Origin: Candidatus Omnitrophota bacterium | GTDB taxonomy: Bacteria; Omnitrophota; Omnitrophia; Omnitrophales; Omnitrophaceae | DNA: 64,000 bases | NCBI GenBank assembly: GCA_029561555.1 | Contig: JAKQXH010000044.1 | Location: 9,691 to 73,690 of the forward strand | Direction of reading: 5' to 3' | Part shown: positions 6,552 to 57,008 of the stretch, piece by piece | Position numbering within the stretch: the stretch's first letter is position 1 | Layout: each line of letters starts with the position of its first letter | Program-made: the position numbers and the translations under genes | Notes under the pieces: generated by a model | The model's database searches: none | What the model saw: the letters and a program-made list of their open reading frames with translations, nothing else | Told to the model about the DNA's origin: nothing

Positions 6552-8657
6552 TTATTCCCGGGGAATTGTGATGCCGGAAGGAAATACGGGCTTCCAATGA
6601 AAAACTTTGGATTCGGGGTTTTTGGGTTCGATTAGTTTTATATTTGAGAAAATCAGTTTTTCATTGTGTCTGGCAATCGCGTGAAGCCCGATCCTTCCGT
6701 TAAACTGACAAATTTTCGATATAACTTCCAAGCGGGCGATAATATTTTCATTGTAAAACAAAAAATAATCCGAATCGATTTTTCGGAACGAAAAGCGAAA
6801 ATTTCGTTGAAAGGCCCCGACGGCAAAGCAAATCGCCGGCGAGGTCTCTCCGTTCAAAACAATGCGGGTGTAAAGATAGTAAAGACTGGCGATGAATGCG
6901 GTATAATTTTGAGGGTCGCGGAGCCCTACGATGAGACCTCCGATAAATTCTCCGGTCATCTCGGCTTCGAATAAAGCAGGGGCGTGATTCTCCTGGCTTA
7001 TGAAAATAGGGAACCCTTTGATTTCAACCGGGGATTGTGTTTTAGGGTTTTCGGAAAATACAATGGTGTTTGCGGGCCCCGGGTGACCGAAACTTTCCAC
7101 CGCGTTTTCCTTCTCGGAAATTATTCTGGAGTACCAGAGGCTTTTGTCCGCTTTTTCCGTGAGATAAAGCGGGGTTTTTTCGGAACTTTGGCAGGATTGC
7201 CGGTCCAGCAATCCGTCCGGAATGGCTTTCGCGATTTTTTGAACCGCAGTCCCGCCGTAACAATAATCCGGATTTTTCCGGAAAAAACCCGAGACCTTTT
7301 GTGCGATTTGCGCCGTATTGTTTTGGGGTTTAAAAGCGGGAATGAGAACTTCTTGGATCTGCCGATATCCGTAACCGATTTGAAAGAGGCAGAAAAGGCC
7401 GCAGCAGGAAATGACCAAGGCGAATTTTGAAAATGTCTTTTTGGGGAAAGGTCCGGACAAGACATGAAGGGATCTGAAGACCGTTCCCAGAAGAATAAAA
7501 AACATGAAATTACCCGCATAGTAGTAATAAGTCGCCGAAGTTAAGTATTCGACGCCCCGGTAGGAGGCCAGCCCCAGAAATAGCATCAAAAGGTATGACG
7601 AAGCGAAAATTGCCAATGTGACGGATGCAAAATCTTTCCGCTTCGCATAATTGAAAAATGCGTAAGCGAAATTCACGATGATGCTTAACAGTGAAATGAC
7701 CGTCGAAAACCAGATTTCCCATTTGGGCATCTGAGAAAAATCCCAGACGATTCTTCCTCCGATATCCCAATCCAAGCGGAGATGAACCAGATTGGGCAGG
7801 CCGAATGCCGTTAGAAAAACTCCCGGAAGAGCGTAGATTTCTTTTATTCTCAGAAGATTGCTTTTCAGGAAACCGGGATTTGGATACAGGGTGCTTTCCG
7901 TCGGGGGGGCCGTCAATTGCAGCAGCAGTTCCCGATGGTTTAAAAGCAGGCTCAGGAGAACCGGCGCGAAAAATACCAGGCAGAGTTTCCAATCTGTTCC
8001 GTGGGACGGGGCGCTGTTTTTTTTGCGGTAAAAGCCGAAAAGACTTGTGCAAAGGAAGAAAAACCCGCAAGCGAACATTGTGGCAAAAATGATTTCATGA
8101 AATTGGCAGGCGATTAGGAAAAGGCCGCTTGCGCCGATAGAAGTTTTTGAGGAAAGGTCTTTCTCTCCGTTCCGGCAAAGCAGTCGAAGTCCCAGGCTTG
8201 CAAATAAAATGCTGAACATATAGGGACTGATGTGCCGATAGACAATCATTTCCATTCCCGTGTATTGAAAGAGAAAGGTTCCGGCCAGAAGAAATGAAAA
8301 CCATATCGGAGCGATGCAGCGGATGAGCAGAAATAGGCAGAAGCAGATAAGGGCGTGCAGGATAATGCTCAGCGCGCCGACGGCGTACAGATTGGTCCTG
8401 GAAAAGATGTCCAACAGGGCAAGCGTTCCCAGCGTTCCCGGCTTCATCCAAAGTCCCTTTTCCTGGTAAATATGCCGTGTCCTGGCGTAGTGGAACGAAT
8501 GAATAAAGTAGTCCCAATCGGAGTTAAAGTATTGGCGTTCGATCATGAAGAAATTCTGGTCCGAACGCGGGTAGGCGACAATGCCGTACCGGTAGATCCA
8601 AAAAGAAGCGATCAGGAAGAACAGCAGTATTACCCAATTTTTAGTGAGAATTTTCAT
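6552..8657 (-). CDS. Large polytopic membrane protein with a C-terminal soluble domain (GT-C / YfhO-like architecture), paralog A.
   Basis: At least 12 hydrophobic segments in the N-terminal two thirds, then a ~250-aa hydrophilic domain. Start chosen at MKILTKNWVILLFF (8657). The ORF track extends to 9038, which would overlap the upstream gene by 300 nt; an alternative start at 8726 (MNLPPE) is possible. Confidence 0.5.
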   Translation of the reverse strand: MKILTKNWVILLFFLIASFWIYRYGIVAYPRSDQNFFMIERQYFNSDWDYFIHSFHYARTRHIYQEKGLWMKPGTLGTLALLDIFSRTNLYAVGALSIILHALICFCLFLLIRCIAPIWFSFLLAGTFLFQYTGMEMIVYRHISPYMFSILFASLGLRLLCRNGEKDLSSKTSIGASGLFLIACQFHEIIFATMFACGFFFLCTSLFGFYRKKNSAPSHGTDWKLCLVFFAPVLLSLLLNHRELLLQLTAPPTESTLYPNPGFLKSNLLRIKEIYALPGVFLTAFGLPNLVHLRLDWDIGGRIVWDFSQMPKWEIWFSTVISLLSIIVNFAYAFFNYAKRKDFASVTLAIFASSYLLMLFLGLASYRGVEYLTSATYYYYAGNFMFFILLGTVFRSLHVLSGPFPKKTFSKFALVISCCGLFCLFQIGYGYRQIQEVLIPAFKPQNNTAQIAQKVSGFFRKNPDYCYGGTAVQKIAKAIPDGLLDRQSCQSSEKTPLYLTEKADKSLWYSRIISEKENAVESFGHPGPANTIVFSENPKTQSPVEIKGFPIFISQENHAPALFEAEMTGEFIGGLIVGLRDPQNYTAFIASLYYLYTRIVLNGETSPAICFAVGAFQRNFRFSFRKIDSDYFLFYNENIIARLEVISKICQFNGRIGLHAIARHNEKLIFSNIKLIEPKNPESKVFHWKPVFPSGITIPRE

Positions 8658-8722
8658 GAAAGGATGGACCGGTTTCCGGCTTGAGGGGCAGAAGGCTATG
8701 TCGGGGGTTTCCGGCGGCAAGT

Positions 8723-11080
8723 TCATGATGCGGTCGGGGAAGACGGACGGGTGTTTTTCTCGGGAAATGCTTTTCGATTGAAGGGGAGGGAGATCCTGAT
8801 TTGGAATAGCAACGCCAGGAATATTATTAGAAGCGTAGAAACGTAAATGACGGAAAATATTGCGATCACGTAACTGAAAATCGACATTAAACCGTTCCAG
8901 TATTTGAATTCCACAAGATGGCGCCCTTTTCCTAGCCGGACCGCTTTGAAAGCAAAATACGCTTTTTCGACCGGGACTTCTTTCCCGTCCACAAAGGCGT
9001 GCCAGCCGGGGTGCCATGCGTCGGCGTACACAAGCCAAGAACCTTTTTCCGCCGCAACAGTCACATCCAGGGACAGTTTATTCGCATTGAAATCGAGAAC
9101 GCGTATCGTTCCGTTTGCGGCCGGCGAAGGATCGGCGTTTGTGACGGTAGGCGGCAATCCGTCCCGTTTTGGCAGGAGAACGACTTGATCGATATTTGGA
9201 ATGTTGAGCAGCATCGGCCATGCCGAATTTTCATTGTCAAGATAAACGGCGTTGGGAATCAGCCGAAGTTTTGGGGATTCGATGCCGAGAATTTGCTTTA
9301 ACGCATTGTCACGCCGGAAGTTATAGATTTGTGATAGTTTGAGCGCTCCCGGCGACCACCAATCAGACCGATAGAAGGACCGGGCCGGATCCAGTTGAAT
9401 GAAATTATACATAATGGTGTGAAGGTTTTCGGGAAAGCAAGCTTGTTCCATCAGTTTGGTTGCGCGTATTTGATGATCGGAAACGGGGAGCTGGTATCTT
9501 TCGCTTTGGAAGCGCAGTGCGTTGACTTTGAAGCAACTGAGAGCCGAGTCGAACTCGGGTGCTACTTTCGGTGACTGCGCGTAAATCATCGCCTGAAACG
9601 AGAAAAGATCAAAAACAAAGGCGATCAAAAAAGCGATCGGGAACCACTGTCTTTCGGAGGTTCCGGCGGATCGGCCGGAACCGGATCGAAGCGGGAAACG
9701 CGCGAGTAAAAATGGGAGAACCAATGCTCCTGCGTAAACAAAAAGTCTGCCGATGAAAACAAAATGCCAAATTTTGATCAGTTCCGGGGTGAGAACAAAG
9801 TCGGAACGGGCCATGAGATTTTTCATGGGGAATTGTGTTGAGAGGGTTCCGAGTAATATCCAGATTGCAATAACCAAACCTGCCGAAAGAATTTTGTTGC
9901 GGGAAGACCAGAATTTTTCCCAGCCGAAACCGGCCGCGATAATGATCAAAACCTTTACAAGACCGTAAATCAGGCCAATATGACGGTAGTAGGACATGCC
10001 GGGAAGATGATAAACCATTTTGGCAAACAGTCCTCCCTGAGACAGGGCGATCAGAGCCGCAATGCAGGCGGTGATGCCCCAGAAGAGGAGATCCCTTTCT
10101 TTTAGAAGCGCCCAGGCGAAAAATAACAGCGGCAGAATTCCGATGTAAATAACGTTATCTAAAGGGCTGGCAATCAACAGGCAGGTGGGCCATCCGAAAA
10201 GGAATGAACGGATTACGTTAGTTAAACTCGGATTGCCTCCGTAGGTCAGAAAAGTATTCAAATCGGCCGTCTTTTTCAGCGAATCCCGCCCGGCTACGTT
10301 AAAGGAAACGTTCGCGAGAGAGTGCGTTTGATAATAGATCACAATGCCGGCCATCAATAAAAAGACGAAAAACGCGAGGTAATTGCCGGGGGATTTCCGG
10401 AAAAGAGATTTCCAAGCCGTCCGTTTTTGGGCGGAGAGGAAGGCGCTTAAGATCAAGAACAGATATGCCCAAAGGATCACGGCATAAACGCCGTCCAGGA
10501 ACCATGCAATGAAGGTGATGCCGCAGAGCCAGAGAAACTTCGGGTTACTTTCCTCGAAGAACCGGAGAAGGAGATAAATGGCGAGAGGGAGGAGGTAGAA
10601 AATTCTCAGGTCGAGAAAATATTGCGAATACCAAACCGTGCTTCCGATCGAGGCGAGGCACGTAAAAAGGACGGAGCTTTTTCTCCTGAAAAGCCGTGTT
10701 GAAAGGAGATACACCCCGGTTAGGAATAAGATCTGGTCAATGACAATGCTCCATTTGTAAAGCGATAAGACATCGGAAATGCGGCATAATTTTCCCAATA
10801 AAACCGCGAAATGGCTTGTTGCCGCTTGCATGAGGAAAAGAAATTCACTTGAGCCTCCAAAATTACCGTACGGAAGCCAGCCGGCAATCTGGCCGTTATG
10901 GAAGAATTCGTTATAGAAATGGAAGAAAATATGGAAGCCCACCAGGGTGTCGACCATCGGAATGAAGTTTTTTGCCAAGTAAAGGAGATTGACTCCTATC
11001 AGGACAATAAGCGAAACCAACAGGACGGGATTGATTCTTATTTTTAACAAGAGATTGCTTTGCTTTCGGAAGTGTTTCAA
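8723..11080 (-). CDS. YfhO-family-like polytopic membrane protein (GT-C-like), paralog B.
   Basis: 785 aa. Many N-terminal TM helices. C-terminal periplasmic-type domain ending in WHPGWHAFVDGKEVPV...LGKGRHLVEFKY followed by a final TM helix (IFSYVIAIFSVIYVSTLLIIFLALL). This topology and C-terminal motif are typical of YfhO-type proteins. Confidence 0.6.
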   Translation of the reverse strand: MKHFRKQSNLLLKIRINPVLLVSLIVLIGVNLLYLAKNFIPMVDTLVGFHIFFHFYNEFFHNGQIAGWLPYGNFGGSSEFLFLMQAATSHFAVLLGKLCRISDVLSLYKWSIVIDQILFLTGVYLLSTRLFRRKSSVLFTCLASIGSTVWYSQYFLDLRIFYLLPLAIYLLLRFFEESNPKFLWLCGITFIAWFLDGVYAVILWAYLFLILSAFLSAQKRTAWKSLFRKSPGNYLAFFVFLLMAGIVIYYQTHSLANVSFNVAGRDSLKKTADLNTFLTYGGNPSLTNVIRSFLFGWPTCLLIASPLDNVIYIGILPLLFFAWALLKERDLLFWGITACIAALIALSQGGLFAKMVYHLPGMSYYRHIGLIYGLVKVLIIIAAGFGWEKFWSSRNKILSAGLVIAIWILLGTLSTQFPMKNLMARSDFVLTPELIKIWHFVFIGRLFVYAGALVLPFLLARFPLRSGSGRSAGTSERQWFPIAFLIAFVFDLFSFQAMIYAQSPKVAPEFDSALSCFKVNALRFQSERYQLPVSDHQIRATKLMEQACFPENLHTIMYNFIQLDPARSFYRSDWWSPGALKLSQIYNFRRDNALKQILGIESPKLRLIPNAVYLDNENSAWPMLLNIPNIDQVVLLPKRDGLPPTVTNADPSPAANGTIRVLDFNANKLSLDVTVAAEKGSWLVYADAWHPGWHAFVDGKEVPVEKAYFAFKAVRLGKGRHLVEFKYWNGLMSIFSYVIAIFSVIYVSTLLIIFLALLFQIRISLPFNRKAFPEKNTRPSSPTAS

Positions 11081-11178
11081 GTTTTTAAATATTTGAGAAG
11101 CCGGGAAGCCTCTCCCCTCCCTTATTCCTCAAGAATACGCGTAATCTTATATTTCATTCAATAGGTTGAATCGGAAAA

Positions 11179-11208
11179 ATCGAGGGTTCCTCAGGGGCAA
11201 CCCTCGAT
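11179..11208 (-). terminator. Intrinsic terminator-like hairpin at the 3' end of the SPASM rSAM gene; the stop codon lies in the loop.
   Basis: Perfect 10-bp inverted repeat ATCGAGGGTT ... AACCCTCGAT. On the minus-strand transcript it is followed by ATTTTTCC. Confidence 0.45.
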
Positions 11209-12360
11209 TGACATAGGGGAAACTCCCCGAGGGCTCAAATATTCGGCCACGTAGGCGTCAAATTCAGCCGGGTCGAATTTCTTGCTTTTCAGCCCCTCAT
11301 CCACTGTAATTTTGAAATAATTGCGGAGAACGGAAGGCGTCAGGCTGAACATTAAATTGAGATCGTTTACGCACATCAGATAACAGGCCTTGCAGCCGTG
11401 ATCCAGGGAATGCCGGACGGCTTTCCGCATCCCGGTTTCTCTGAAATCCCACCCGTCAAATTTCCCGATGAATTGGATGCACGGATAAACTTTCCCGTCG
11501 CAATCGATGAATATCATGTGTCTCCCGCCGAAGCATTTGATGTATTCAAATTCCGGCGGATTCTTGGAGAGGATGACTTTCCGGGTGTAATCGGGCCAAT
11601 CCAGAATTTTTCGCATGACCGTCTCCGAAAAAAGGATGGGGTAGCCGCGTTTTTTATAGGCAATCAGTTTTTTGACCGCTTCCCGGTACTCGTCTACGGA
11701 GATGTCCAGGTTCTGATAATCCGCGTCGCTTTTTAAGCTCCTTTGAACGAAAAAGCCGAATTCGGTGTAAATATGAAAGCGTTTCGCGAATTCCAGGATT
11801 CCGTCTAAGGCGGCCAGATTGTTCCGGTTGACGGTGGTGTAAGTGTGAACATTCACCCCCGCTTTTTTTGCGGCTTTGATGGCTTTCATAATGGTCTCAA
11901 ATGTGCCGCTTCCGCGGTTTGAATCATTGCTGGGTTTGTTCCCGTCCCAACTGATGCAAATCGTTTTGATTTTCTTCACGGTTTCGATTTTTTTCTCAAC
12001 CAAACTTCCGTTGGTGCTGATCCCCAAAGTGATCCCCAAAGCATTGGCTTTGTCTACGATCCGGTCAATGTCTTCCCTCAGCAAGGGTTCCCCTCCGCTG
12101 AGCTGCAGAAAAGACATCCCCATCCGGGCCAATTCCTCTATGGCCGCGAGAGCTTGTTCCGTGGTGATCGGATTTTTCTCCCTTTTTCTGTTTTTGTAAT
12201 CACCGTAACAATAGGCGCAATCGAAATTGCACTGAGGGGTCAGGGAGAAAGTGACGACAAGCGGGAACGGTTTGTTGAGGGCTTTGGAATAGAGCAATCT
12301 TGAGAAGAAACGGGCCCTGGAGATCAATGTCGCGATGGGTGCTTGTTTTTGGCTGTTCAT
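11191..12360 (-). CDS. Radical SAM protein with a C-terminal SPASM/twitch Cys-rich domain, paralog 1.
   Basis: CNFDCAYC (CxxxCxxC) about 45 aa from the N-terminus. C-terminal Cys cluster CFGG...CDGKVYPC...GCKACYLMC. Paralogous to the ORFs at 18525, 23689 and 24743. Confidence 0.8.
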   Translation of the reverse strand: MNSQKQAPIATLISRARFFSRLLYSKALNKPFPLVVTFSLTPQCNFDCAYCYGDYKNRKREKNPITTEQALAAIEELARMGMSFLQLSGGEPLLREDIDRIVDKANALGITLGISTNGSLVEKKIETVKKIKTICISWDGNKPSNDSNRGSGTFETIMKAIKAAKKAGVNVHTYTTVNRNNLAALDGILEFAKRFHIYTEFGFFVQRSLKSDADYQNLDISVDEYREAVKKLIAYKKRGYPILFSETVMRKILDWPDYTRKVILSKNPPEFEYIKCFGGRHMIFIDCDGKVYPCIQFIGKFDGWDFRETGMRKAVRHSLDHGCKACYLMCVNDLNLMFSLTPSVLRNYFKITVDEGLKSKKFDPAEFDAYVAEYLSPRGVSPMSIEGCP

Positions 12361-12379
12361 CGGGTCCTCATTTTTAACT

Positions 12380-13834
12380 TTATTGTATGCAGAATTTTTC
12401 TTTAAGGAATCTTTTTATTTGCCGCCGGTTCAGAAAAATGAAGCGTCCGCTCAAAATGTCGAGTATTAAATTCGGAAAATGAGATCTTAGAAATTCCCAA
12501 TAAAAAATTTTTTCTCTCCGTCTCAGCTCTTTTTTGTCAAAATCCGGAGTCTCAACGATCGGAGCGTTGAATCGGTCGATATTTTTCCAGTAATCCGCTT
12601 GGAGATAGCCTTCCCGGACGGATTCGTCATACAGTTTGGTTCCGGGGAAAGGAGTGAAAAAGCTTGTTGCGACCATGCTGAACGGGAATTTCCGGATCAT
12701 TTTCAGGGTTTCGGAAAAACAATCTTTGTTTTCCCCCGGAATCCCCAGAATAAAAAAGCCGATAACGGGAAGTCCCGCTTGTTTGCAGGCGGTCAGGGCC
12801 CGGTAAATCGTTTCTTCGCTGAGCCCTTTTTTAATGACGTGATTCCGGATGAAAGCGCTCCCGGATTCAACGCCGATGCAAACATTGACGCAGCCCGCTT
12901 TTTTCATTAACCGGGCCAATCCCGCGTCCAAGTGATCGGCGGCGATTCCGTTGGGGGTGTTCCATTTGAATTTCAGTCCGCCGCTGAGAATCAATTCGCA
13001 TAACCGGATGATTCGGGATTTGTCGTATGTCAAATTGTCGTCCATGAAGAAGATTTCTCTCACCCGAAAGTCTTTTAGGAGAATTTTTATCTCTTCGAAG
13101 ACATTTTCGGCGCTTCTCCCTCTCCACTTGGTTCCATGAGATTGATACATGCTGCAAAAAGTGCATTTTCGGGGACAGCTTCTGCTGGTGATGATCGAAG
13201 CAGCGCGGTTTTGTCCCAGCCCGTAGAGGACGGCCGACGGGTTTTGCAGGTAGAATTCCATGGGGAGTAAGTCCCTGGCGGGGAAAGGAAGTTCGTCCAG
13301 TCTCAGGATGAATTCCGTTTTGGAGCACACTTTTATCGTGCCGTCTGCTTTATAGGCACAGCCGTCGAGTTTTATTTCTTCCGGTGACTTTCCCGACTCG
13401 ATATGGCGGACAAGAGCCAAAAAGGATTTTTCGCCTTCGCCGATTATGACGTAATCCACTTCAGGATGGGCTCCGGTTTCCCGGGGGAAAATGGTCGGAT
13501 GAATTCCTCCGATCACCGTGATAATGGTCTTGCTGATTTCTTTGGCGGATCTTGCTATCTCCAACGCGGTGTCAATCCGTAAACTGAAAGGGCAGGTAAT
13601 TCCGACGATGTCCGGCTTGAATTCTTTTATCCGATGAATAACGTCCTGTTTTGAAAGCCCGTAATGCCAGACAGCTCCGTTTTTCTTGACTTCCGAAGCT
13701 GCCGCATCCAATATGGCGGTACAATATCCGTGTTTCCGGAGATAGGCCGCCAAATAGGCGAGAGACAAAGGTTCTTTGATTAATAAATGCGGCGAGTAAT
13801 AATCGAAAGCGGGATTGATCAGCAGGATTTTCAT
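12380..13834 (-). CDS. Cobalamin-binding (class B) radical SAM protein, paralog 2.
   Basis: MKILLINPAF... B12-binding-like N-terminal domain. SRSCPRKCTFC radical-SAM motif. 20-bp gap to the downstream SPASM gene. Confidence 0.8.
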   Translation of the reverse strand: MKILLINPAFDYYSPHLLIKEPLSLAYLAAYLRKHGYCTAILDAAASEVKKNGAVWHYGLSKQDVIHRIKEFKPDIVGITCPFSLRIDTALEIARSAKEISKTIITVIGGIHPTIFPRETGAHPEVDYVIIGEGEKSFLALVRHIESGKSPEEIKLDGCAYKADGTIKVCSKTEFILRLDELPFPARDLLPMEFYLQNPSAVLYGLGQNRAASIITSRSCPRKCTFCSMYQSHGTKWRGRSAENVFEEIKILLKDFRVREIFFMDDNLTYDKSRIIRLCELILSGGLKFKWNTPNGIAADHLDAGLARLMKKAGCVNVCIGVESGSAFIRNHVIKKGLSEETIYRALTACKQAGLPVIGFFILGIPGENKDCFSETLKMIRKFPFSMVATSFFTPFPGTKLYDESVREGYLQADYWKNIDRFNAPIVETPDFDKKELRRREKIFYWEFLRSHFPNLILDILSGRFIFLNRRQIKRFLKEKFCIQ

Positions 13835-14104
13835 GAATTGCGCGTGATGAAGTGTCTCACCCTCCCCCGGAAAACGTTTGTAAAAATACCTTGATTATAA
13901 AGATAGAAAACCGGTCCCGGCGGTTTTACCGCAGCGTCCTACGATTAGTATAAAATAACTTCGGGAGTTGTTCCAATTAAGAATTCCGGAGGAGAATGGG
14001 GCCCGGTGGAAAGATCGGGAAGGCGGCCGTCTGTGGACGGAAGAGATTTGAGGGATAACGCTTGCGGTAAATACCAAAACGATATTAGAATCTGCTATTA
14101 AAAT

Positions 14105-17014: not shown

Positions 17015-17065
17015 ACCGGGGATTTTTCTTGGTTCTCGGGGGGTGTCCGTCAACTTGAGAAATGA

Positions 17066-22192: not shown

Positions 22193-22195
22193 GGC

Positions 22196-23620: not shown

Positions 23621-23688
23621 TTTTTTATCCGCGCGTCGTGCGCTGTTTTAACGAAAAAACGATTTAACTTGCGATAAACAATCGCAGG

Positions 23689-24720
23689 TCAGCGGCTTTT
23701 TAGAGTGCTGATCACTTGTCCTGCGAGAACTTTGAGGTCCAGGCTTGCGATTTTATTGAATTCATTATAGCAGGGGAAGTAACAAGTTTTGCAGGCGTGC
23801 CCGGAACAGTGTTCCCAAGCCTTTTCAATGCCGACTTTCCTGAAGTCCAGGGCGTCAAAGGCGTCGATTAACTGAACGCAGGGATAGGTTCGCCCGTCCG
23901 CGTCGATGAACATCATGAAACGGCCGGCGAAACAGCGTATGTAATCAAAATCGGGTTCTTGCCCCATGACAATGCGTTGATGAGGATCCGGCCAATCGGC
24001 CGCGTAGCGGTAAACGGCTTCCGAGAACAAAATCGGGGCTCCTTGTTTTTTAAGTTCCGCGACCCGGTTGGCCGCTTTCCGGAAAAGGTTTTGCTCGGCC
24101 ATGTATCGGTCCGATTCGCTTTTCCCGCCGGATTGATGAAAGAGAAAATTGAATTCCGCCTGCATCCTTTTTTCCCGGGCCAGGTTGACGATCCAGTCCA
24201 CCGCGTCTGTGTTGTGCCGGGTGATGACCGTTGTCGTGTGAACTTTTATCCCGGCCCGGAGTGCCGCGTCGATTCCCGCCATGATTTCTTCGAAAGATCC
24301 CGTTCCCCGGTTTGCGTCGTTCATTTCCTTGGGCCCGTCGATGGAAACGGTGACCATGTCGATGTCTTTCAGATCCGGAAGCCGCCGGGGGATCAAAATC
24401 CCGTTGGTGTTCATCCCGCATTCAATTCCGCAGTCTTTGATCTTCCGGATGAGAAAGCCGATGTCGTTGCGGAGGAGAGGCTCTCCGCCTCCCAGCGTGA
24501 TGGAACGCGTGCCGAGTTTCCGGAGCCCGTCAATCAGGCCGGAGAGTTCTTCCGTCGTGAAGTCCGCATCCTTTCGCCCGAAATATTGGCCGTAGCAGTA
24601 GCCGCACTTCAGATTGCACCGGAAGGTCGTGTTCAAGACAACAACGAGGGGGGTTCTTCCCCCGGTAAACCGGTCTTTTAAGAGTGTTGCGAAAAATGCG
24701 GCGCGATTGTAAAAGCCCAT
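23689..24720 (-). CDS. Radical SAM / SPASM-twitch domain protein, paralog 3.
   Basis: CNLKCGYC motif. C-terminal CFAG...DADGRTYPC...GHACKTCYFPC Cys cluster, collinear with paralog 1. Confidence 0.8.
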   Translation of the reverse strand: MGFYNRAAFFATLLKDRFTGGRTPLVVVLNTTFRCNLKCGYCYGQYFGRKDADFTTEELSGLIDGLRKLGTRSITLGGGEPLLRNDIGFLIRKIKDCGIECGMNTNGILIPRRLPDLKDIDMVTVSIDGPKEMNDANRGTGSFEEIMAGIDAALRAGIKVHTTTVITRHNTDAVDWIVNLAREKRMQAEFNFLFHQSGGKSESDRYMAEQNLFRKAANRVAELKKQGAPILFSEAVYRYAADWPDPHQRIVMGQEPDFDYIRCFAGRFMMFIDADGRTYPCVQLIDAFDALDFRKVGIEKAWEHCSGHACKTCYFPCYNEFNKIASLDLKVLAGQVISTLKSR

Positions 24721-24742
24721 GCGGTTCCTCTGTTTTAGTGCG

Positions 24743-25780
24743 TCAAGATTTCACATAATTCCATATAACGGCAGGATTCAGATCCATCAAAAGCCCGAAC
24801 TCATGATGATAAATTTGATAGCAGGCTTTGCAGGGGTGCCTGGATGCCGTTTGCCATGCCCGCGCGACTCCCGTCTCGAGAACATTGTCCGCGTCAATTT
24901 TACCGATCAGATGCGGGCAGGCCCATAAGGTCCCGTCCGGGTCGATGATCCCGAAGAATTTTCCCGCCGGGCATCCCGGCATCCCCTCCGGCGGAGGGGC
25001 GTTCACGACGCCTTCGATCGAGAAATCTTTCCAGCAGTTTAAAACGCTTTGAAAGGCTTTTGCGGAAGTCAGGATCGGGGCGCCTTCCTTTTTCCTTCGG
25101 ATAATATGAAGAAGCGCGTTCCGGAATTCTTCCGTGGAGGGTTTGAATTCGTCCTCCGGAAGGCTGTTCCCGAAAATGTTGGAGATCACAAGGGAAAATT
25201 CCGTTTTGAAGCCGTACCGACGGGCCAGATCCAGCAGGTAATCGATGTCATTCAGATTATGTTTGCTGAGGACCGTATTCGAATGAACACGAATGCCGGC
25301 TTTCCTCGCCGCGATAATGCCGTTGAGGGCCTTTGCCGCGGTTCCCGCGCCCCGAAGCCGGTCATGATGCTCGGGCCGGCCGTCGAGACTGACGGCCAGG
25401 GAATCCGGTCGGGATCTTGCCGTTTTTAATTCCGAGAGAAACTGGGGGATGAGGATCCCGTTTGAATTCAGCGTGGAATACATTCCCAGGGAATTGACGA
25501 ATGCGATCAGTTCGCCGATGTCTTTCCGCAATAGCGGCTCTCCGCCGCCGAAACTGATTCGTTGACAGCCGTTTTGGCGGAGCGCCAGGATTATTTCCTT
25601 GACCTTTTCCGTGGACAGTTCGTTTTCACCGCTCCGGTTGTAATATTCCGCATAACAATGCCTGCAACGTGAATTGCAGCGGTTCGTCAGGTTGATGATG
25701 ACGGTTAAGGGAACATTTTTCCGGAGCAATTTCGACCGGAGCAGTCCAAAGAAAAATCGACAGCTTTTCAGGATTGCCAT
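24743..25780 (-). CDS. Radical SAM / SPASM-twitch domain protein, paralog 4.
   Basis: CNSRCRHC motif. C-terminal Cys cluster (CPAGKFFGIIDPDGTLWACP...CKACY). Confidence 0.8.
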   Translation of the reverse strand: MAILKSCRFFFGLLRSKLLRKNVPLTVIINLTNRCNSRCRHCYAEYYNRSGENELSTEKVKEIILALRQNGCQRISFGGGEPLLRKDIGELIAFVNSLGMYSTLNSNGILIPQFLSELKTARSRPDSLAVSLDGRPEHHDRLRGAGTAAKALNGIIAARKAGIRVHSNTVLSKHNLNDIDYLLDLARRYGFKTEFSLVISNIFGNSLPEDEFKPSTEEFRNALLHIIRRKKEGAPILTSAKAFQSVLNCWKDFSIEGVVNAPPPEGMPGCPAGKFFGIIDPDGTLWACPHLIGKIDADNVLETGVARAWQTASRHPCKACYQIYHHEFGLLMDLNPAVIWNYVKS

Positions 25781-25789
25781 GAAGAAGCG

Positions 25790-27307
25790 CTACTCCAGAT
25801 ATTCCCGAAGATAACCCAGGAAAAATCCCGGGTTCTGAAAGAACCCCATGTCATGCGCGAGGGCCATGTAAAATCGCGGCCGCTTCAGGGCGTCGAGCAG
25901 GAGGCTTTTCCGATTGATCCGGGCAAATTCCTCCATGGCCCCGTCGAGGACCCGCTTTTTTTCTTCCGCATCAATGCCTTCGGTCAGAGAAGAAGCGGTG
26001 CTGATATGGCAACGGTCCCGGTATTCGGCCAAGCCCTGAGGATTTTTCCTTGCGAGAAAATCCGCAAGTTCGGTTCCCGCGGCGGGCGTGGCCAGATAAG
26101 GATAAACGATATAAGGCTTGATTTCCTTGATGAGATTGACGGTGTCCCGTATTTCTTTCGTGCCTTCCCAGGGGAGGCCGACCATGCAGAAAGCGACCAT
26201 GTAGAGGCCGTGCTTGCGGATCAATTTCGCGCATCGGCGCACGTCATCCACCGTGTTGCCTTTTTTGATCAGTTCCCGGATGCCGGGATTTCCGACCTCC
26301 ACGCCGACCGCGATATGCTGTCCGCCGGCTTTCTTCATCATGGACAGCGTTTTATCGTCCGCCATTTCCGCCCGCGTCTGTGCCGACCAAAAAAGCGGAA
26401 GGCGGCGACGGAGAAGCAGGTCGCAGAATTCGAGGGCCCGGTCTTTTTGAATGAAGAAAATGTCATCGCAGATATAAAAGTATCTTGTGCCAAAACGCCG
26501 GTACACGCTTTCCATTTCATCGACCATGTTTTTCGCGGAGCGGAGGCGGGGTTTGTATCCCCAGCTCGTGTGACACCCGCAGAAGACGCAATCGAAGGGG
26601 CATCCCCTTGAACCGTAAATTCCCTGGAATGAGTGGGGAGGTGTTTTTTCGGCACCGTAGAGGAGGTGCCGGGCGGGAAAGGGAAGCCAGTCTAAATCTT
26701 CAAGCGGGGGCCGGTCTTCATTGTGAACCATGCCGCCGTTTTTCTTCCAACTGAGGCCTTTGATTTTCGAAAAGTCGTTTGATTTTGACGCCAACGCTTG
26801 AACCAGTTCAACTGCGGTGACTTCCGGCTCCTTCCTCAGGGCGAAATCCATGACGGAAACGTCCGCGTTCGTGCTGGGGTCGATGGCACAGTGCAGTCCG
26901 CGGTTGGTGCAGCCTTCAAAGACGGTTTTAATGGCGGGGTCCAGTTCTTTCGCTGTTTTTGCGATTTTGTTTCCCGCGGTGAGCGTGGTGCTGAAAACGC
27001 TGAGGAATAACAGGTCCGGCCGGTATTGCCGGATGAATTGCCGTATTTCTTCCCAAATCGGGTCCCCGTCGTCGTGCAATCGCCGGTCGTATTCTTCCGC
27101 GAGCTCCGTGAGGGCTTTAATGTTCAGATGGTTGGTGTTTCCGAGAATGGTTTTTTTGTGCGGATCAAAATCCGCGTTGTAAATCAAGATATCGTTAAAT
27201 CCGGCCTTTTCGAGTACGGCCGCGATGTAACAGCAGGAAGGGGGATAGTGAACGAGGGATGCCCTTTGCAAACGGTAAAAGGGAGGGTTGATGATCAGAA
27301 TTTTCAT
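25790..27307 (-). CDS. Cobalamin-binding (class B) radical SAM protein, paralog 6.
   Basis: MKILIINPPF... B12-like domain. SRGCPFDCVFC motif. 9-nt gap to SPASM paralog 4. Its start overlaps the upstream SDR gene stop (ATGA). Confidence 0.8.
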   Translation of the reverse strand: MKILIINPPFYRLQRASLVHYPPSCCYIAAVLEKAGFNDILIYNADFDPHKKTILGNTNHLNIKALTELAEEYDRRLHDDGDPIWEEIRQFIRQYRPDLLFLSVFSTTLTAGNKIAKTAKELDPAIKTVFEGCTNRGLHCAIDPSTNADVSVMDFALRKEPEVTAVELVQALASKSNDFSKIKGLSWKKNGGMVHNEDRPPLEDLDWLPFPARHLLYGAEKTPPHSFQGIYGSRGCPFDCVFCGCHTSWGYKPRLRSAKNMVDEMESVYRRFGTRYFYICDDIFFIQKDRALEFCDLLLRRRLPLFWSAQTRAEMADDKTLSMMKKAGGQHIAVGVEVGNPGIRELIKKGNTVDDVRRCAKLIRKHGLYMVAFCMVGLPWEGTKEIRDTVNLIKEIKPYIVYPYLATPAAGTELADFLARKNPQGLAEYRDRCHISTASSLTEGIDAEEKKRVLDGAMEEFARINRKSLLLDALKRPRFYMALAHDMGFFQNPGFFLGYLREYLE

Positions 27308-28299
27308 TGTTTTTTATCTCGTTGCGCTAAGGATCGCATCCAGCGGATCGTTTTTTCCAGATCGAAAGCGATGGGCCCCGGAGCAAATCCCAGTTCCCGC
27401 TTTGCTTTTTCATTCGAATAAAAATGATACCGGCCGAGATAGGAATTGACCGATTTCAGGCTCAAGGGCATTGTTTTCTTGGTTATGACGGACAATGCGT
27501 CGAACCCCAATCCCGCGGTTCGGAGAAAAAACATGGGCAAGGGAAACCGGATGCGTTTTTCTCCGAAAAGAGAATCGATTTGCCCGACAATGTCTCTGAA
27601 TCTCATATTCGCGTTTGACAAAATGTATCGCCCGAACGTTTTTCCTTTTTCAAGCGCAAGCCGGTGCCCTTCGGCGACATCTTCAACTCCCACCAGATTG
27701 ATGCCTCCGGGAAGATAGAAGGGCCAGTTTTTCAACTTGGCTATTATAGCATTTGAAGGAGTGATGCGAAAATCATCCGCTCCGATAACGGTCGAGGGAC
27801 AGACGGTGACGAGAGGAAGCTTTCTTTCTCTGGCGAAGGATAAAAGCTCTATCTCGGATCTCAGTTTGGCTTCCACGTAGGCGGATCCCGGGGTTTCGTT
27901 CCAGGATGTTTCGTCGAGCAAACGGGAAGGGGATAAGGAAGCGCCGACGGCGGCGACCGAACCGGTGTAAATGAATTTCCGAACGCCGGCATTCAGGGAA
28001 GCTTTGGCGGTATTGAGGCTGCCTTCGATCGCGGTTTTCAGGATTTCTTCTTTCCGGCAGGGATCGGTCGAGTAAACGGCTGCGGTATGAATGACGCCTT
28101 CACATTGGGCTAGAGCGTCCGTCAGACTTTTCAGATTAAGGATATCTCCTTCGACGATTTCAAAATTTCCCTTCAGGTTTTCCAGGGCTTTCCGATTGCT
28201 GCCGGGACGGCAAAAAGCTTTGACGCGATATCCGCAGTGAAGCAGATTTTTTACCACATGGCTTCCGATGTGACCGTTTGCCCCCGTGACGAGAATCAT
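27304..28299 (-). CDS. NAD(P)-dependent epimerase/dehydratase (extended SDR).
   Basis: MILVTGANGHIGSHVV Rossmann motif at the chosen start (28299). The ORF-track extension to 28521 overlaps the upstream GT2 and looks non-coding. The chosen start forms a 4-nt ATGA-type overlap with the GT2 stop. Confidence 0.7.
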   Translation of the reverse strand: MILVTGANGHIGSHVVKNLLHCGYRVKAFCRPGSNRKALENLKGNFEIVEGDILNLKSLTDALAQCEGVIHTAAVYSTDPCRKEEILKTAIEGSLNTAKASLNAGVRKFIYTGSVAAVGASLSPSRLLDETSWNETPGSAYVEAKLRSEIELLSFARERKLPLVTVCPSTVIGADDFRITPSNAIIAKLKNWPFYLPGGINLVGVEDVAEGHRLALEKGKTFGRYILSNANMRFRDIVGQIDSLFGEKRIRFPLPMFFLRTAGLGFDALSVITKKTMPLSLKSVNSYLGRYHFYSNEKAKRELGFAPGPIAFDLEKTIRWMRSLAQRDKKQ

Positions 28300-29276
28300 T
28301 CTTTTGGAAATGGATTCCTGCCGGATATTGACCGAAACAGGTGAAAGAGACAGTTCCATATTCCGGAAAAGATCCCCATGACGCAGACGATATCGCGGAC
28401 GAGAATGACACCGGTGCTTTTTGCGAGCGGGAGGCGGTTTTGTCTGAGGAAAAGCAGGAAGCTCCGGTTGAGGATGACGATTGCGGCCATGCCGGCCAGG
28501 GAGAGAAGGGGATGTTTCCACAGCGCGGCCAGCGTGATCATCGTCAGGACGGTTTCCAGATAAATCCCCTGTCCCTGGTGGGTCTTGGAGAAAATCATGC
28601 CAGGATGGCAGTAATAGGACCAGACCGTGTCTCTCGCGAAGCGGAACTGCTGTTTGAGATATCCTCGCAGGGAATTTTTAAAATGATGAAGGACCCCGTT
28701 GTCTTTGTCCCAGTAAATTTCGTATTTTTGGCTGATTTTGAAAGAAAGACGGAGGTCCTCGCAGACATACCGTTCCGGGAATTTTCCGCATTCGTAGAAA
28801 ACATCCCGGGTACAGGCAAAATTATTCGCAACCAGCGTTTTAACGAAAGCGGGAGTGTTTTTCCTTCTGTGCGCCAATTCCAGATGGGCGAACCGCTCGA
28901 TAAAAGAATTCCCTTCGGAGCCGGAGTACCCTCCGCCGACGCATCGGACCCGAAAGGATTCTATGTCACGCAGGATGTTCGCGAGCCAGTTTTCCGGGAG
29001 TATGACATCCGCGTCCGTGAAGGCGAGAATTTCCCCGGATGAGGCATCGGCCCCCCGGTTTCTCGCGGCCCCCACGCCTTGATTTTTTTCGCTGCGTGTG
29101 ACTTTTGCGTAACGGGCCGCGATTGATGCGGTCTCGTCCGTGGAGGCGTCATCCGCGACAATGATTTCAAAATCGAGGAAAGTCTGCCGGATGAGCGATT
29201 CAAGGCATTTGTCGATGAATCCTGCCGCGTTATAGGCCGGAATAACGACGGATATTTTCGGCATGATGGTCGTCAA
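28296..29276 (-). CDS. GT2 glycosyltransferase with a C-terminal membrane domain.
   Basis: PKISVVIPAYN...DDASTDET...DADV motifs typical of the GT-A fold. Three or more hydrophobic helices in the last 80 aa. An alternative start at 29264 (MPKIS) is possible. Confidence 0.7.
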   Translation of the reverse strand: MTTIMPKISVVIPAYNAAGFIDKCLESLIRQTFLDFEIIVADDASTDETASIAARYAKVTRSEKNQGVGAARNRGADASSGEILAFTDADVILPENWLANILRDIESFRVRCVGGGYSGSEGNSFIERFAHLELAHRRKNTPAFVKTLVANNFACTRDVFYECGKFPERYVCEDLRLSFKISQKYEIYWDKDNGVLHHFKNSLRGYLKQQFRFARDTVWSYYCHPGMIFSKTHQGQGIYLETVLTMITLAALWKHPLLSLAGMAAIVILNRSFLLFLRQNRLPLAKSTGVILVRDIVCVMGIFSGIWNCLFHLFRSISGRNPFPKE

Positions 29277-30204: not shown

Positions 30205-30300
30205 TGACGATGGCTCCGATTCTCGAGCCGCAGTATAGCCTACTCTTTTTGTTTTGAATAGTCCAAATTGGCCCGCTTCAAATTGTTTTTTTGGGGGAAA

Positions 30301-31715
30301 TCAACGTTGGGAATCGATTAAATACCGGAGAATAATTCTGGCTTTTTTGGCGAAATCCGCCCGTGAAACGTAAAGGCGCATCATTTTGAGGGCGAAGAAT
30401 AATTCATAGACCGTTTTGAGAACAAAACGGGGCAGTGCGAATAAAGCTCTTCGAGCCGGAACCGCGGAATACAGAAAGGGGAAATTGACGAAAAGGGGGA
30501 AAAGACGCATGAGTTTTTGAATGGCTTTATTTTCCCTGGGGGACATTTCTAAAATGGATTGTGTGAAAAAATCGTCCGGGATTTTCTTTTCCGCATTGGG
30601 AACGTAATGTCCGTGAGCGATTGCATACTCGGTCAGCGCCAGGCCGGGAAAGGGGACGAAAATATTCGCGAGCCCCATGGACGGCTTGGCTTTGATATTC
30701 AGTTCCAGTGTCTTCAGCATTTGCCCGAAGCTTTCGCCGGGGAGCCCGATAATATTTCCGATCCGGTACCGGATTTTGTATTGGGTGAGCAATTCGGCTG
30801 TTTTGAAAATTTGCGAGTCCGACATTTGGCGTTTGAGGACCGTATTTCGCATGAATTCGTCTCCCGATTCGATGCTCCAGTTCACGACAATGCATCCGCT
30901 GTCGCGCAGGGCCCGGGCGATTTCCTCGTCGACCAGATTGGCCCGGATATTGCAGGTGTAGGGGAGTCCGATTTCTTTCGGGAAACGTTCGCAAAATTCA
31001 GGAACCATTTCTTGTCGATAATGAACGTGTCGTCGTTGAATACGACCGTCAGCAGGGGATATTTTCCCCGAACCAGCCGGATTTCGTCGAGAAGGTAGCC
31101 GACACTTTTTTTCCGTATTACGGATCCGCAAGTCTTGAAAATTTCCCGGAATTTGTGATTGAAACAATAGGTGCAGTCATAAGGGCATCCCCGGCCTGAC
31201 AGGAACTGTTTGGACGGCATATTCCGTAGAGTGGGATCCACGCGGTAGACGATGTCCCGGTCCGGAAAAGGCAGCCGGTCCAATTCGGCGAAAGGATGAA
31301 ATTCCGACGGGCCGGGGCTTCCTTTGGGAGCGATATTTTTACGGGACCTGAAACCGCTTTGGATGTAATCGAGAAGCGCGATTTCTCCTTCCCCGGCGCA
31401 GAAAGCGTCAATCGTGGAATCCTTGATGCAGTCCCAGTCGAAAGTGGGGCCCGGCCCTCCGATCAGAGAGTTGGCTTTCAGCGTTTGCTTGGCGATTTTA
31501 TCGAATTCCCTGAACGAGGGGACGGCAAAGGAAAAAGCGGAATACAAAAGCAGGTCCGGCGCGAGGCTCCGGATGGTCTGAAGCGCTTTTGCTTGACGGG
31601 GCCCCCGAACAAAATGGACTTCAATGCCGTTCTGCTTCAGGACGCTGGAGAGAGAATAAATCCCGTGGCGGTCGTAAAAATGGCTGAGGGAATCAAAAAA
31701 AACGACGGTGGTCAA
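30301..31715 (-). pseudogene. Cobalamin-binding radical SAM paralog 7, disrupted by a single -1 frameshift near 31003 (or an assembly error).
   Basis: ORFs 30882..31715 (N-terminal B12-like domain plus GRGCPYDCTYC) and 30301..31167 (radical-SAM C-terminal half) overlap in different frames. Together they align end-to-end with intact paralogs (...DKKW | PEFCERFPKEIGL...). Confidence 0.65.
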
Positions 31716-31736
31716 TATCGGGCTCCTTGCATGATG

Positions 31737-34157
31737 TTAATAATTTACCGGCACGTCCCTGACAAATTTATTGTAACCGGTTTTAGGGCGGAGGTAAATT
31801 CCCGAGAGGAGCCAGAGGATGCCGAAGAGCCAGAAGAGGGAATTGATTTCGAAAAAGGCGTACAGGGCGGATAATACGGGAGAGTGAAACGTAAAATGAA
31901 TAAGATTCGGACCTTTTGAAAGCGGGACGGCCTTGTAAGCGAGGTTGGCTTTGAATACGGTCACGGGTTTACCGTTTACAGTGGCTTTCCAGCGGGGATG
32001 CCAGGTGTCGCTGTAAAGCAGCCAGGCGGATTTCAGGTCCGGCGGCATATTGACGGCGAGATTCAGGCGGTTCGCGTCAAAAAACAGGATCCGGTAAGGT
32101 CCCGTCAGGCGGGCGTTGAGGGAAACCGGTTTTTCGGGAGCCCATTCAATGGTCCCCGGAATATTCTTCGGGCTTCGGCCCGGGCGATGCAGGAACGGGA
32201 TGTCGCCGTTATAGTCGGGACGGTTCATCTGAGCGGATGTCCATAAATCCTGCTCGGCAAAATAAATATCGGGGAAGACATACGCGGTTTCGAAGAATTG
32301 AATCTTGTCTTCCGTCAGCCCCGCTATTTTCCCGGAGGCGGGATGGGACAGCGGGAAATCGAGTTTTTTGAGTTCTTCAAAACCTGCCGGTGGAGTCGAA
32401 GTGTCGCGGAGGGACTGTCCCCAGTAAGTTTTCATGTATGAATCAAGCGGCAGGAGCCAGTGATCGGTCCGGTATGCATTGCCGATTTCATCCTGAAACG
32501 TGAAGGACTGAAGCGAGAAATAAGCCGCGCCATAGGAGACCCGTTTTTGGCAGAAGAAGGTGCGCAATTCGCCGGAATTCGGCGAGGCGATGCGCCGCGT
32601 CGCGTAAGGCATGGGCTGGAAAGCAGTGATTTTGGCTTCTTTTTGGTTAAGAGAGACGGTCCTGAGGCAGGTTTCCGAAAATTTGTATTCGCCCAGGTCC
32701 CAAAGATGGAGAGCCAGGGCTATAAAGAGAATGACCCGGGAATATTTTTTAAATTGAGGAGCCGCGCCCGAAATAACTAAAACGCCTGAAATGATCGCAA
32801 GAATAGCCGCGCTGACTGCCCGGGCGGTTATCACCCTGGGCAGGAAGGTCCAGGCGAATTTCGAAAGGCCGTTTGGAACAATAATGGCGAGAAGGACCCT
32901 GAGAGTTTCATGGTTTTTGAGAAGGATGAGGGCGTTGGCCGAAACGGCAAAGAGAACCGCTCCGACAAAGAAAAAGCGGAATTTGGATTTTTTGATTCTG
33001 TCCATAGCGGCGGCATGCGTGAACATCCCGTCCAGTCCCGCGCCCGCCAGGAGACAGAGAAAATATTTCGCGAAAAGAGTAACCAGCGAGAGATGCCGGA
33101 AGAATTTCATTCCGGGCCAGGCGTAATAAAAAAATACGGCCAGCGGCGTGCCCATGGCAAAGAGAGAGATTAAAACCGCCGCGAGGAGGAAATGGGCGTT
33201 TTTCCTGCGAAGCGTGAATAGTCCCAGCAGGGCGAGTGAGATCCCGAGAATTCCGATGTAGAGATTGTAGTCGACGCAGGGGGAAATTCTCAGAAACGAT
33301 TCCATCCAGCAGCCGGGGTTGAGCGTTCCTCCGTATTCGAGGAAATACTTTAAGGGAACGGTTCCGTCGGGATTTCGTCCGAGATAATATTTGGTCAGGA
33401 GGCCGGTTTCGGTCCGGAGCAAGAGCAGGACGGCGAACAATGAAAATAAAACAGCGGCAATAGCGGCAACGGAGGCCATGCTGAATTTAAGAGAAAAGAT
33501 CTTTTTGCGAATCTCACGGGGATTGCAAACGGTATAGGAGGAGAAATAGATAGCGATTACCAACGATAGGACGGGCGGATAGTAGGGTAGATTTGCGAGC
33601 ATTTGAACCGCAAATAAATTTCCCGCAAGAGCCAGATATCTCCATTGTCCCTGTTCGAGAAATCGATGGAGGAGGTCGAGCATGAGAGGCATTGCGTAGT
33701 AGAAATGAAAATTAAACCAGACCTGTCCCGCCCAAATGCAGGAACCCATGACGGACACGGCGGTGAAAAAAGCGGCAGCCGGCGAAAGGAATCTTCTCGC
33801 AAAGAGCCATGTTCCAACCAATAGCAGAAGTTCGTCAAAGAAAATCCCGGCATTGAAAATCTGAATAAAATTAATTCCTTTCAGGAGTGGGGTCGCCAGC
33901 AGCAGGACATTTTGCAGAATTCCGGCTTGAATGGCGTACCACCAGGTCGCGACCGTTCCGTGAGTCATGAAGGGCATCCATTGAGGGATTTCACCGTACA
34001 TGACGGCGTGATTCAGGAAGTAATACTGAAGGGTAAAGTATTCGAATGTGTCATGTCCGTTAGGGATACGGTTTTTAAAGTTCAGGAAAAGAATGAGACT
34101 GAATTCCAGGCAGAGGATTAAAAAGAAAAGAATGCGGTCGAGCCGGGCTGTTTTCAA
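31737..34157 (-). CDS. YfhO-family-like polytopic membrane protein (GT-C-like), paralog D.
   Basis: 806 aa. Many TM helices. C-terminal domain ending in WLLYSDTWHPRWKATVNGKPVTVFKANLAYKAVPLSKGPNLIHFTF plus a terminal TM helix. TTG start overlapping the stop of the upstream B12-rSAM (TTGA). Confidence 0.6.
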   Translation of the reverse strand: MKTARLDRILFFLILCLEFSLILFLNFKNRIPNGHDTFEYFTLQYYFLNHAVMYGEIPQWMPFMTHGTVATWWYAIQAGILQNVLLLATPLLKGINFIQIFNAGIFFDELLLLVGTWLFARRFLSPAAAFFTAVSVMGSCIWAGQVWFNFHFYYAMPLMLDLLHRFLEQGQWRYLALAGNLFAVQMLANLPYYPPVLSLVIAIYFSSYTVCNPREIRKKIFSLKFSMASVAAIAAVLFSLFAVLLLLRTETGLLTKYYLGRNPDGTVPLKYFLEYGGTLNPGCWMESFLRISPCVDYNLYIGILGISLALLGLFTLRRKNAHFLLAAVLISLFAMGTPLAVFFYYAWPGMKFFRHLSLVTLFAKYFLCLLAGAGLDGMFTHAAAMDRIKKSKFRFFFVGAVLFAVSANALILLKNHETLRVLLAIIVPNGLSKFAWTFLPRVITARAVSAAILAIISGVLVISGAAPQFKKYSRVILFIALALHLWDLGEYKFSETCLRTVSLNQKEAKITAFQPMPYATRRIASPNSGELRTFFCQKRVSYGAAYFSLQSFTFQDEIGNAYRTDHWLLPLDSYMKTYWGQSLRDTSTPPAGFEELKKLDFPLSHPASGKIAGLTEDKIQFFETAYVFPDIYFAEQDLWTSAQMNRPDYNGDIPFLHRPGRSPKNIPGTIEWAPEKPVSLNARLTGPYRILFFDANRLNLAVNMPPDLKSAWLLYSDTWHPRWKATVNGKPVTVFKANLAYKAVPLSKGPNLIHFTFHSPVLSALYAFFEINSLFWLFGILWLLSGIYLRPKTGYNKFVRDVPVNY

Positions 34158-57002: not shown

Positions 57003-57008
57003 CACAGA

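Follow-up and report, generated by a model that had tools for sequence, protein, structure and literature searches.

The stretch analysed here is a 64-kb window (the whole of the DNA studied) on contig JAKQXH010000044.1 of an uncultured Candidatus Omnitrophota metagenome-assembled genome (MAG). From 3.6 to about 43.6 kb the window holds a surface-glycan biosynthesis locus, with nearly all of its genes on the minus strand. Four large membrane proteins (M1 to M4) and two family 2 glycosyltransferases (GT2a and GT2b) of this locus are the main subject. A preliminary description had regarded the four membrane proteins as YfhO-like paralogs which, together with the two GtrB-like enzymes, would form a multi-copy, three-component system for glycosylation outside the cytoplasm. 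All six open reading frames (ORFs) concerned exist and were located at or near the positions first reported, in the ORF list and in public gene calls; the ends of M1, M2 and GT2a were adjusted. The revised features are as follows.

6552-8726, minus strand: M1, 724 aa, about 11-12 transmembrane (TM) helices and a C-terminal galectin/ConA-like beta-sandwich; its family is unannotated and GT-C-like in fold
8723-11050, minus strand: M2, 775 aa, divergent YfhO-superfamily GT-C glycosyltransferase
14105-17014, plus strand: M3, polytopic near-orphan of 969 aa, the sole plus-strand gene among the four
19599-20528, minus strand: GT2a, GtrB/ArnC-type polyprenyl-phosphate glycosyltransferase, GT-A domain and two C-terminal TM helices
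29230-30204, minus strand: GT2b, of the same type and domain structure as GT2a, 1.5 kb from M4
31737-34157, minus strand: M4, full-length paralog of M2, divergent YfhO-superfamily GT-C enzyme

The coordinates of M1 and M2 follow the public gene calls, in which the start of M1 overlaps the stop of M2 by 4 nt. M1 is identical to NCBI entry HNV85650.1, and the region is also present on a 135-kb Logan contig. By sequence comparison, the four membrane proteins belong to three separate lineages (M2 with M4; M1; M3) and do not form a single expanded family.

M2 and M4 are paralogous end to end (BLASTP, 23% identity, 2e-36). M2 consists of TM1, a loop with the motif (H/V)D(T/S), about 11 more TM helices, a periplasmic domain of about 230 aa whose last part is a beta-sandwich, and a terminal TM helix. 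The C-terminal motif formerly ascribed to all four proteins reads, with its spacing corrected to W...W, W...W.A.V[DN]GK.V.V.KA..A[FY]KAV.L.KG..L[VI].F. The full motif is confined to M2 and M4, where the terminal TM helix follows next; M3 retains a relaxed core with the helix, and M1 has neither. In the search with the YfhO model PF09586 (gathering threshold 28.5 bits), M2 scored 37.0 bits (residues 659-729 against profile positions 756-825), and M4 scored 23.8 bits, below the cut-off and over its final ~70 residues only. M1 and M3 gave no match. About 17 full-length homologs of M2 and M4 were found among 5.8 billion proteins; they match PF09586 with 27.8-32 bits, again in the C-terminal part only. 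The profile of the M2 family was aligned with hhalign to P0024, a genuine PF09586 protein whose TM region scores 80.8 bits, with a probability of 99.0% (E 9e-18) along columns 44-720, and to P0020 with a probability of 99.4%. Homology over the whole length, including the TM domain, to a bona fide YfhO member was found for M2 and M4 only.

Every M2-family member with an intact N-terminus carries (H/V)D(T/S) directly after TM1 (H-D-T in M4), at the place where GT-C enzymes have their catalytic acid. In the structure model of M2, two short loop helices come after TM1, which is also the arrangement of GT-C enzymes, and a fold search of the model listed STT3, AglB and PglB among the top matches. 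Because of their paralogy, the shared motif, the end-to-end alignment with P0024 and the (H/V)D(T/S) after TM1, M2 and M4 are divergent YfhO-superfamily GT-C enzymes. A scan of genome contigs with M2 alone gave no match. The neighbourhoods of M2-family genes are mixed: the homolog in locus L008 lies within a glycan locus, and those in L001 and L010 lie amid large unannotated membrane proteins, sulfatase-family proteins and DUF2142.

M1 has no match in Pfam or NCBIfam and no detectable sequence similarity to M2, M3 or M4. Five members of its family came from the protein search; the tandem paralog in L006 and the members in L012 and L014, which were obtained by genome scan, bring the alignment to eight sequences (23-30% identity). 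Invariant in all eight are P-R-x-D just after TM1, R59, E136, R141-H142-x-S-P-Y and F-H-E at 186-188. The model of M1 shows TM1 followed by two short loop helices, as GT-C enzymes do. Its top structural matches are PMT-type enzymes, with STT3, AglB and PglB also among the top, and its C-terminal domain resembles galectins and the carbohydrate-binding module CBM66. With E limits of 0.1 or 0.01, the PMT and PMT_2 models (PF02366, PF13231) matched neither M1 and M3 nor their relatives. M1 is therefore most likely a GT-C enzyme of an unannotated PMT-like family with a lectin-like, acceptor-binding domain.

Two tandem M1-family genes with overlapping stop and start codons are present in L006 (1249-5339); paralog pairs thus occur in the M1 family too. 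M1-family genes and B12-binding radical S-adenosylmethionine (SAM) genes are convergent (3' to 3') in the window (5026-8726) and in two JGI contigs, L015 (10001-13488) and L016 (4377-7864). The radical SAM genes in question share 23% identity, so that the arrangement may be a coincidence. In L016, an MBOAT gene and a weakly AlgX-like gene lie downstream.

M3 has no Pfam match either. The word-index search returned M3 itself only, and an exhaustive phmmer search of 1.84 billion cluster representatives yielded three relatives, two of which are fragments of one ortholog. When compared with the M2 family by hhalign, the single sequence gave a probability of 83% (E 8e-6, about 240 residues of the C-terminal part) and the family profile gave 61% (E 8e-5, the last ~72 columns). 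The region shared in the profile alignment is the V-D-G...A-V-.-I-P-.-G strand pair with the terminal TM helix; in M3 this C-terminal core is degenerate and spans about 70 residues. In the six-frame translation of the window, the relaxed form of this core, V[DN]G x8-14 AV.[LI]..G with a terminal TM helix after it, occurs in M2, M3 and M4 and nowhere else.

A parse of M3 by hydropathy and the positive-inside rule predicts about 8-9 extra TM helices at the N-terminus, then a TM helix at residues 301-322, a 65-residue loop that opens with S-A-D-P-D, about ten TM helices, a periplasmic domain of 255 residues and the terminal TM helix. The sequence S-(A/S)-D-x-D is common to M3 and its 35%-identical relative. 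The positive-inside rule suggests a periplasmic position for the SADPD loop, and the predicted layout is compatible with a GT-C core that ends in a YfhO-type C-terminus.

With respect to fold, the elements of a GT-C core (TM1, a first extracytoplasmic loop with short helices, a polytopic bundle) were found in the models of M1 and M2. A conserved, putatively catalytic acid is predicted to lie in the first extracytoplasmic loop of each lineage: (H/V)D(T/S) in the M2 family, PRxD in the eight M1 members and S-(A/S)-D-x-D in the M3 pair. These putative loop motifs are at residues 30-33 of M1, about 32-34 of M2 and 328-332 of M3. A soluble domain of 230-300 aa with a terminal TM helix is common to M2, M3 and M4; M1 lacks the terminal helix. 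Compared by their TM domains alone, M3 and the M2 family, M1 and the M2 family, and M1 and M3 gave no significant match in hhalign. One apparent TM-domain hit was an artefact of overlapping slices. A sequence "PGM..(Y/W)RHI", considered as a sign of homology between M1 and the M2 family, was dropped, as it is not colinear with the Asp after TM1 and reached a probability of 1-26%. Searches of M1, M2, M3 and the family profiles against PDB chains by sequence returned nothing useful. At least three of the four large membrane proteins look like periplasm-facing glycosyltransferases. The preliminary description is thus partly confirmed as an observation and partly supported as an interpretation: a YfhO relationship stands for M2 and M4, is limited to a YfhO-type C-terminal end in M3 and does not hold for M1, which most likely belongs to a different GT-C family.

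The claim of two GtrB-like enzymes was upheld. In both proteins a GT-A domain precedes two C-terminal TM helices, and both are homologous along their full length to GtrB and ArnC, whose structures are solved. In phmmer searches, Synechocystis GtrB (PDB 5EKP) was matched by GT2a over residues 3-308 (E 8e-70) and by GT2b over residues 6-310 (E 2e-89). ArnC was also matched over the full length (E 8e-31 for GT2a, E 7e-44 for GT2b), and the two proteins are 40% identical to each other. The top NCBIfam model of both is PgfS (240 bits for GT2a and 271 bits for GT2b, under a cut-off of 500 bits); the ArnC model gave 126 and 179 bits (cut-off 529 bits). The sugar transferred by GT2a and GT2b cannot be named, because the PgfS scores are about half of the curated cut-off. 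The locus contains two further GT2 genes:

28296-29276, minus strand: GT2c, third GT2 with C-terminal TM helices, MftF/processive-like, not GtrB-type
42831-43562: short fourth GT2 of the glycan locus

The membrane proteins and GT2 genes are accompanied by a nucleotide-sugar module and, on the far side of M1, by an oxidoreductase gene:

3627-4841, minus strand: FAD oxidoreductase of the DAO family, flanking the cluster
35667-42569, minus strand: nucleotide-sugar module (Pfam) with nucleotidyltransferase (NTP transferase), GHMP kinase, epimerase/reductase, DegT aminotransferase, thiamine pyrophosphate (TPP)-dependent E1 beta and alpha, and epimerase

The module has counterparts in other genomes. 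In L004/L011, from an uncultured-bacterium MAG, the whole module is present in the same order (46-74% identity). In L004 it is followed by an ortholog (66%) of the B12-binding radical SAM gene at 34154-35662, an ortholog of the DAO gene (64%), an epimerase gene and an M1 homolog; the latter is directly upstream of a PMT_2 GT-C gene, after which come GT2 genes, including a GtrB-like one, and another PMT_2 gene. The array in L014 comprises an ortholog of the short GT2 (76%), a DedA/VTT protein and an M1-family protein that consists of the TM domain only (hhalign probability 99.9%, lectin domain absent), as well as a B12 radical SAM ortholog (54%), E1 alpha and beta, an epimerase and a GHMP kinase. 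The gene at 34154-35662 is the only radical SAM gene with orthologs in the syntenic loci (L004, L014). M2, M3, M4 and the other radical SAM genes are absent from L004/L011 and L014. Since the syntenic loci lack M2-M4 and have M1 homologs, the membrane protein conserved together with the sugar module is M1, which, as judged from gene order, is also its ancestral partner. The stretch from 8.7 to 34.1 kb forms a variable block of ~25 kb that is specific to this genome and is inserted between M1 and the module; it holds ten radical SAM genes, M2, M3, M4 and GT2a-c.

Several observations concern the module and the block. The TPP-dependent E1 alpha/beta pair (39557-41580, minus strand), near the DegT, GHMP kinase and NTP transferase genes, is kept in L004 and L014 and suggests a branched or two-carbon-extended amino sugar. 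In L014, which is from a MAG labelled Nitrospinaceae, the gene of the DedA/VTT protein, a candidate polyprenyl-phosphate flippase, adjoins the short GT2 ortholog (2065-5308). The high identities of the L014 genes suggest a close relative or a mis-binned contig. The G+C content at 6001-18000 of the window is 0.47-0.49, slightly below that of most other parts (mostly 0.50-0.55); this lower-GC stretch takes in M1 and, at 8.7-18 kb, roughly the initial 10 kb of the genome-specific block.

Twelve radical SAM genes (Pfam) are interleaved with the transferase genes between 5026 and 35662, that is within 31 kb:

5026-6510 (plus strand), 12380-13834, 17066-18514, 20621-22192, 22196-23620, 25790-27307, 30301-31715 (frameshifted) and 34154-35662: eight B12-binding radical SAM genes
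11191-12360, 18525-19586, 23689-24720 and 24743-25780: four radical SAM genes of the SPASM/Fer4_12 type

Ten of them were compared with NCBIfam and none reached a curated cut-off, the genes at 24743-25780 and 30301-31715 having been scanned against Pfam only. The best partial NCBIfam matches include lipid enzymes and enzymes of ribosomally synthesized and post-translationally modified peptides (RiPPs). A literature search found no precedent for so radical-SAM-rich a polysaccharide or O-antigen locus. From their position it is a reasonable inference that these enzymes tailor sugars. The B12 radical SAM gene at 30301-31715 (minus strand) is split into two overlapping ORFs, an N-terminal one (30882-31715) with the B12 domain and CxxxCxxC and a C-terminal one (30301-31167). 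This implies a +/-1 frameshift, which to judge from the two translations lies near an A-rich run, and the gene is either a pseudogene or affected by an assembly error.

Downstream of the glycan locus, pyrG and genes for lipopolysaccharide (LPS) are found at 52.5-58.6 kb:

54198-58642, plus strand: kdsA, kdsD, lipid A acyltransferase, lptC/lptA and lptB, LPS context genes

The presence of these genes in the window shows that the host is a diderm with LPS, as had been supposed. Two ORFs at the margins of the glycan locus are noted here. At 43-3561 (plus strand), adjoining the locus and continuing upstream of the window, lie the C-terminal 1172 aa of a protein of more than 1872 aa with no Pfam domain; giant ORFs are a familiar trait of Omnitrophota. 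At 43736-44047 (plus strand), between the short GT2 gene and a GT47-like gene, there is an ORF of 103 aa with a signal-peptide-like N-terminus.

Taken together, the locus at 3.6-43.6 kb is probably a GT-A/GT-C periplasmic glycosylation locus, a known kind of system built with rare parts. In the proposed relay, the conserved module (35.7-42.6 kb), the B12 radical SAM enzyme of 34154-35662 and the DAO oxidoreductase would make an unusual nucleotide sugar. At the cytoplasmic face, GT2a and GT2b would charge undecaprenyl phosphate with single sugars taken from nucleotide donors, and a flippase encoded outside the window would move the lipid-linked sugars across the membrane. The GT-C-fold transferases, presumably facing the periplasm, would then pass the sugar to an acceptor, which may be LPS, another envelope glycan or a protein. 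Catalysis would depend on an acid where the first periplasmic loop begins, in the motif (H/V)D(T/S) for M2 and M4, PRxD for M1 and probably SADPD for M3. The C-terminal beta-sandwich domains probably bind the acceptor glycan. On balance we favour this relay as a whole, with its three GT-C lineages and two GtrB/ArnC-type GT2s.

Several points weigh against it. The third component of the system first described would be a GtrA-type flippase; no small hydrophobic ORF of the GtrA type is encoded in the 64-kb window, and one could lie elsewhere in the genome. Four GT-C candidates and two GtrB-type GT2s allow no one-to-one pairing, and neither GT2a nor GT2b reaches an NCBIfam equivalog cut-off, their scores being far below all of them. 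The likeness of M3 to the M2 family is weak and C-terminal (61-83%), the model of M1 is of low to moderate confidence (pLDDT 62, pTM 0.60), and the M2-family homologs in L002 and L009 occur in unrelated, Planctomycetes-like settings that have no GT2. The whole case is computational, built from sequence and models, for an uncultured host.

The main rival holds that some or all of the GT-C proteins are en-bloc transferases, ligases or polymerases that use oligosaccharides linked to undecaprenyl pyrophosphate, for example a protein O-oligosaccharyltransferase or a stand-in for the Wzy polymerase or WaaL ligase. In the Pfam scan of ORFs at 1-48 kb, nothing matched Wzx, Wzy, WaaL or an ABC exporter, and therefore a GT-C protein of the locus could fill such a role. 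The same explanation draws on the four GT-C candidates set against two undecaprenyl-phosphate-sugar synthases, on STT3, AglB and PglB among the top structural matches of M1 and M2, and on the prediction that the Bacteroidota YfhO is an O-oligosaccharyltransferase (bioRxiv 10.64898/2026.07.27.740950). However, the scanned ORFs include no initiating phosphoglycosyltransferase of the WbaP/WecA type, and the neighbouring GtrB-type GT2s indicate monosaccharide donors. We rate this explanation as possible, at roughly one chance in a handful.

Less probable still is that the acceptor is a protein, with O-glycosylation of Ser/Thr-rich regions of envelope proteins similar to that by Pgf or PgtC2. PgfS is the top NCBIfam match of both GT2s (240 and 271 bits), the YfhO-family proteins PgfM1, PgfM2 and PgtC2 glycosylate streptococcal proteins (PMC12041528), and PMT-type enzymes head the structural matches of M1. 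Yet the PgfS scores amount to only about half of the required 500 bits, both GT2s resemble GtrB just as strongly, M1 with its galectin/CBM-like domain at the C-terminus points to a carbohydrate as acceptor, and no candidate gene for a Ser/Thr-rich substrate was identified in the window. That the 25-kb block has a product other than a glycan, such as a modified lipid or a peptide, with M1 or M3 as transporters or scaffolds, is very improbable. The twelve radical SAM genes with their lipid and RiPP partial matches, the assignment of M3 by sequence and predicted topology and the lack of Pfam matches for M1 and M3 would agree with it. Against it, the short intergenic gaps are too small for precursor-peptide ORFs, the block itself includes three GT2 genes and an epimerase gene, and the adjoining nucleotide-sugar module shows synteny with M1; for the same reasons a RiPP reading of the radical SAM block was rejected.

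The relay preferred here has close parallels. Pairs of GT-A and GT-C enzymes occur several times per genome in B. subtilis (three), L. lactis (three) and streptococci (PMC8035078, PMC12041528). The CsbB/YfhO systems of B. subtilis, S. aureus and Listeria, and GtrB/PgtC2 and PgfS/PgfM1/PgfM2 of streptococci, likewise combine a GtrB-type GT2 of two TM helices with a large GT-C protein, and several such sets per genome are possible. The GT-C proteins of the CsbB/YfhO and Pgf types have an extracytoplasmic domain in their C-terminal part and end with a TM helix, as do M2, M3 and M4 here, and M2 and M4 are homologous to a PF09586 protein over their full length. In contrast to the CsbB/YfhO type, the present host is a diderm without teichoic acids, and the neighbourhood has no GtrA/GtcA flippase; only the last ~70 residues of M2 and M4 match the Pfam model, with borderline scores, and M1 and M3 are outside the YfhO family. 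The Gram-negative Gtr system of O-antigen glucosylation (GtrA/GtrB/GtrC) and the Arn system of lipid A modification (ArnC/ArnT) share with the locus a diderm host with LPS and full-length homologs of GT2a and GT2b. They differ in that the locus has no GtrA, no ArnT/PMT_2 signature and no ArnA, B, D, E or F, and that its GT-C partners belong to other families. With the PMT and PMT_2 enzymes M1 is connected by its homolog in L004, next to a PMT_2 gene; it differs by PRxD in place of the DE motif, by a galectin-like C-terminal domain in place of MIR domains and by the lack of a PMT/PMT_2 Pfam match.

The preliminary description considered such proteins unusual outside the Firmicutes, which is contradicted by the literature. 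PF09586 is conserved at gathering threshold across the Bacteroidota, where it is proposed as their O-oligosaccharyltransferase (bioRxiv 10.64898/2026.07.27.740950), and Durairaj et al. 2023 described a bacterial family of YfhO-like GT-C proteins with 836 UniRef50 clusters, poorly captured by annotation (PMC10584680). Like the Bacteroidota YfhO and the YfhO-like family 'component 27' of Durairaj et al. (the latter, with its representative A0A7X7MB17, compared by description), M2 and M4 are divergent YfhO-like GT-C proteins in a diderm or in diverse bacteria with weak Pfam matches. The Bacteroidota YfhO differs as a single conserved housekeeping copy and not part of a variable locus.

The locus demonstrates no new mechanism. 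New are only the density of radical SAM genes and two rare GT-C lineages without family models: neither the M1 family nor M3, with its extra N-terminal module of 8-9 TM helices, is covered by Pfam or NCBIfam. The annotation of the region is corrected to three separate GT-C lineages in place of a fourfold YfhO expansion. For M1, the conserved motifs and the link to a specific nucleotide-sugar module are sufficient to seed a new family model; the motifs of M3 are candidates. M2 and M4 provide a further example of YfhO-superfamily enzymes in a diderm, and an unusually radical-SAM-rich glycan locus is flagged in the Omnitrophota. A bolder proposal, which we regard as unlikely, is that the dozen radical SAM enzymes tailor nucleotide- or undecaprenyl-phosphate-linked sugars which the three GT-C lineages install in the periplasm. 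If true, the envelope glycan of this member of the Omnitrophota would be heavily C-methylated or rearranged, by a route without a characterised counterpart.

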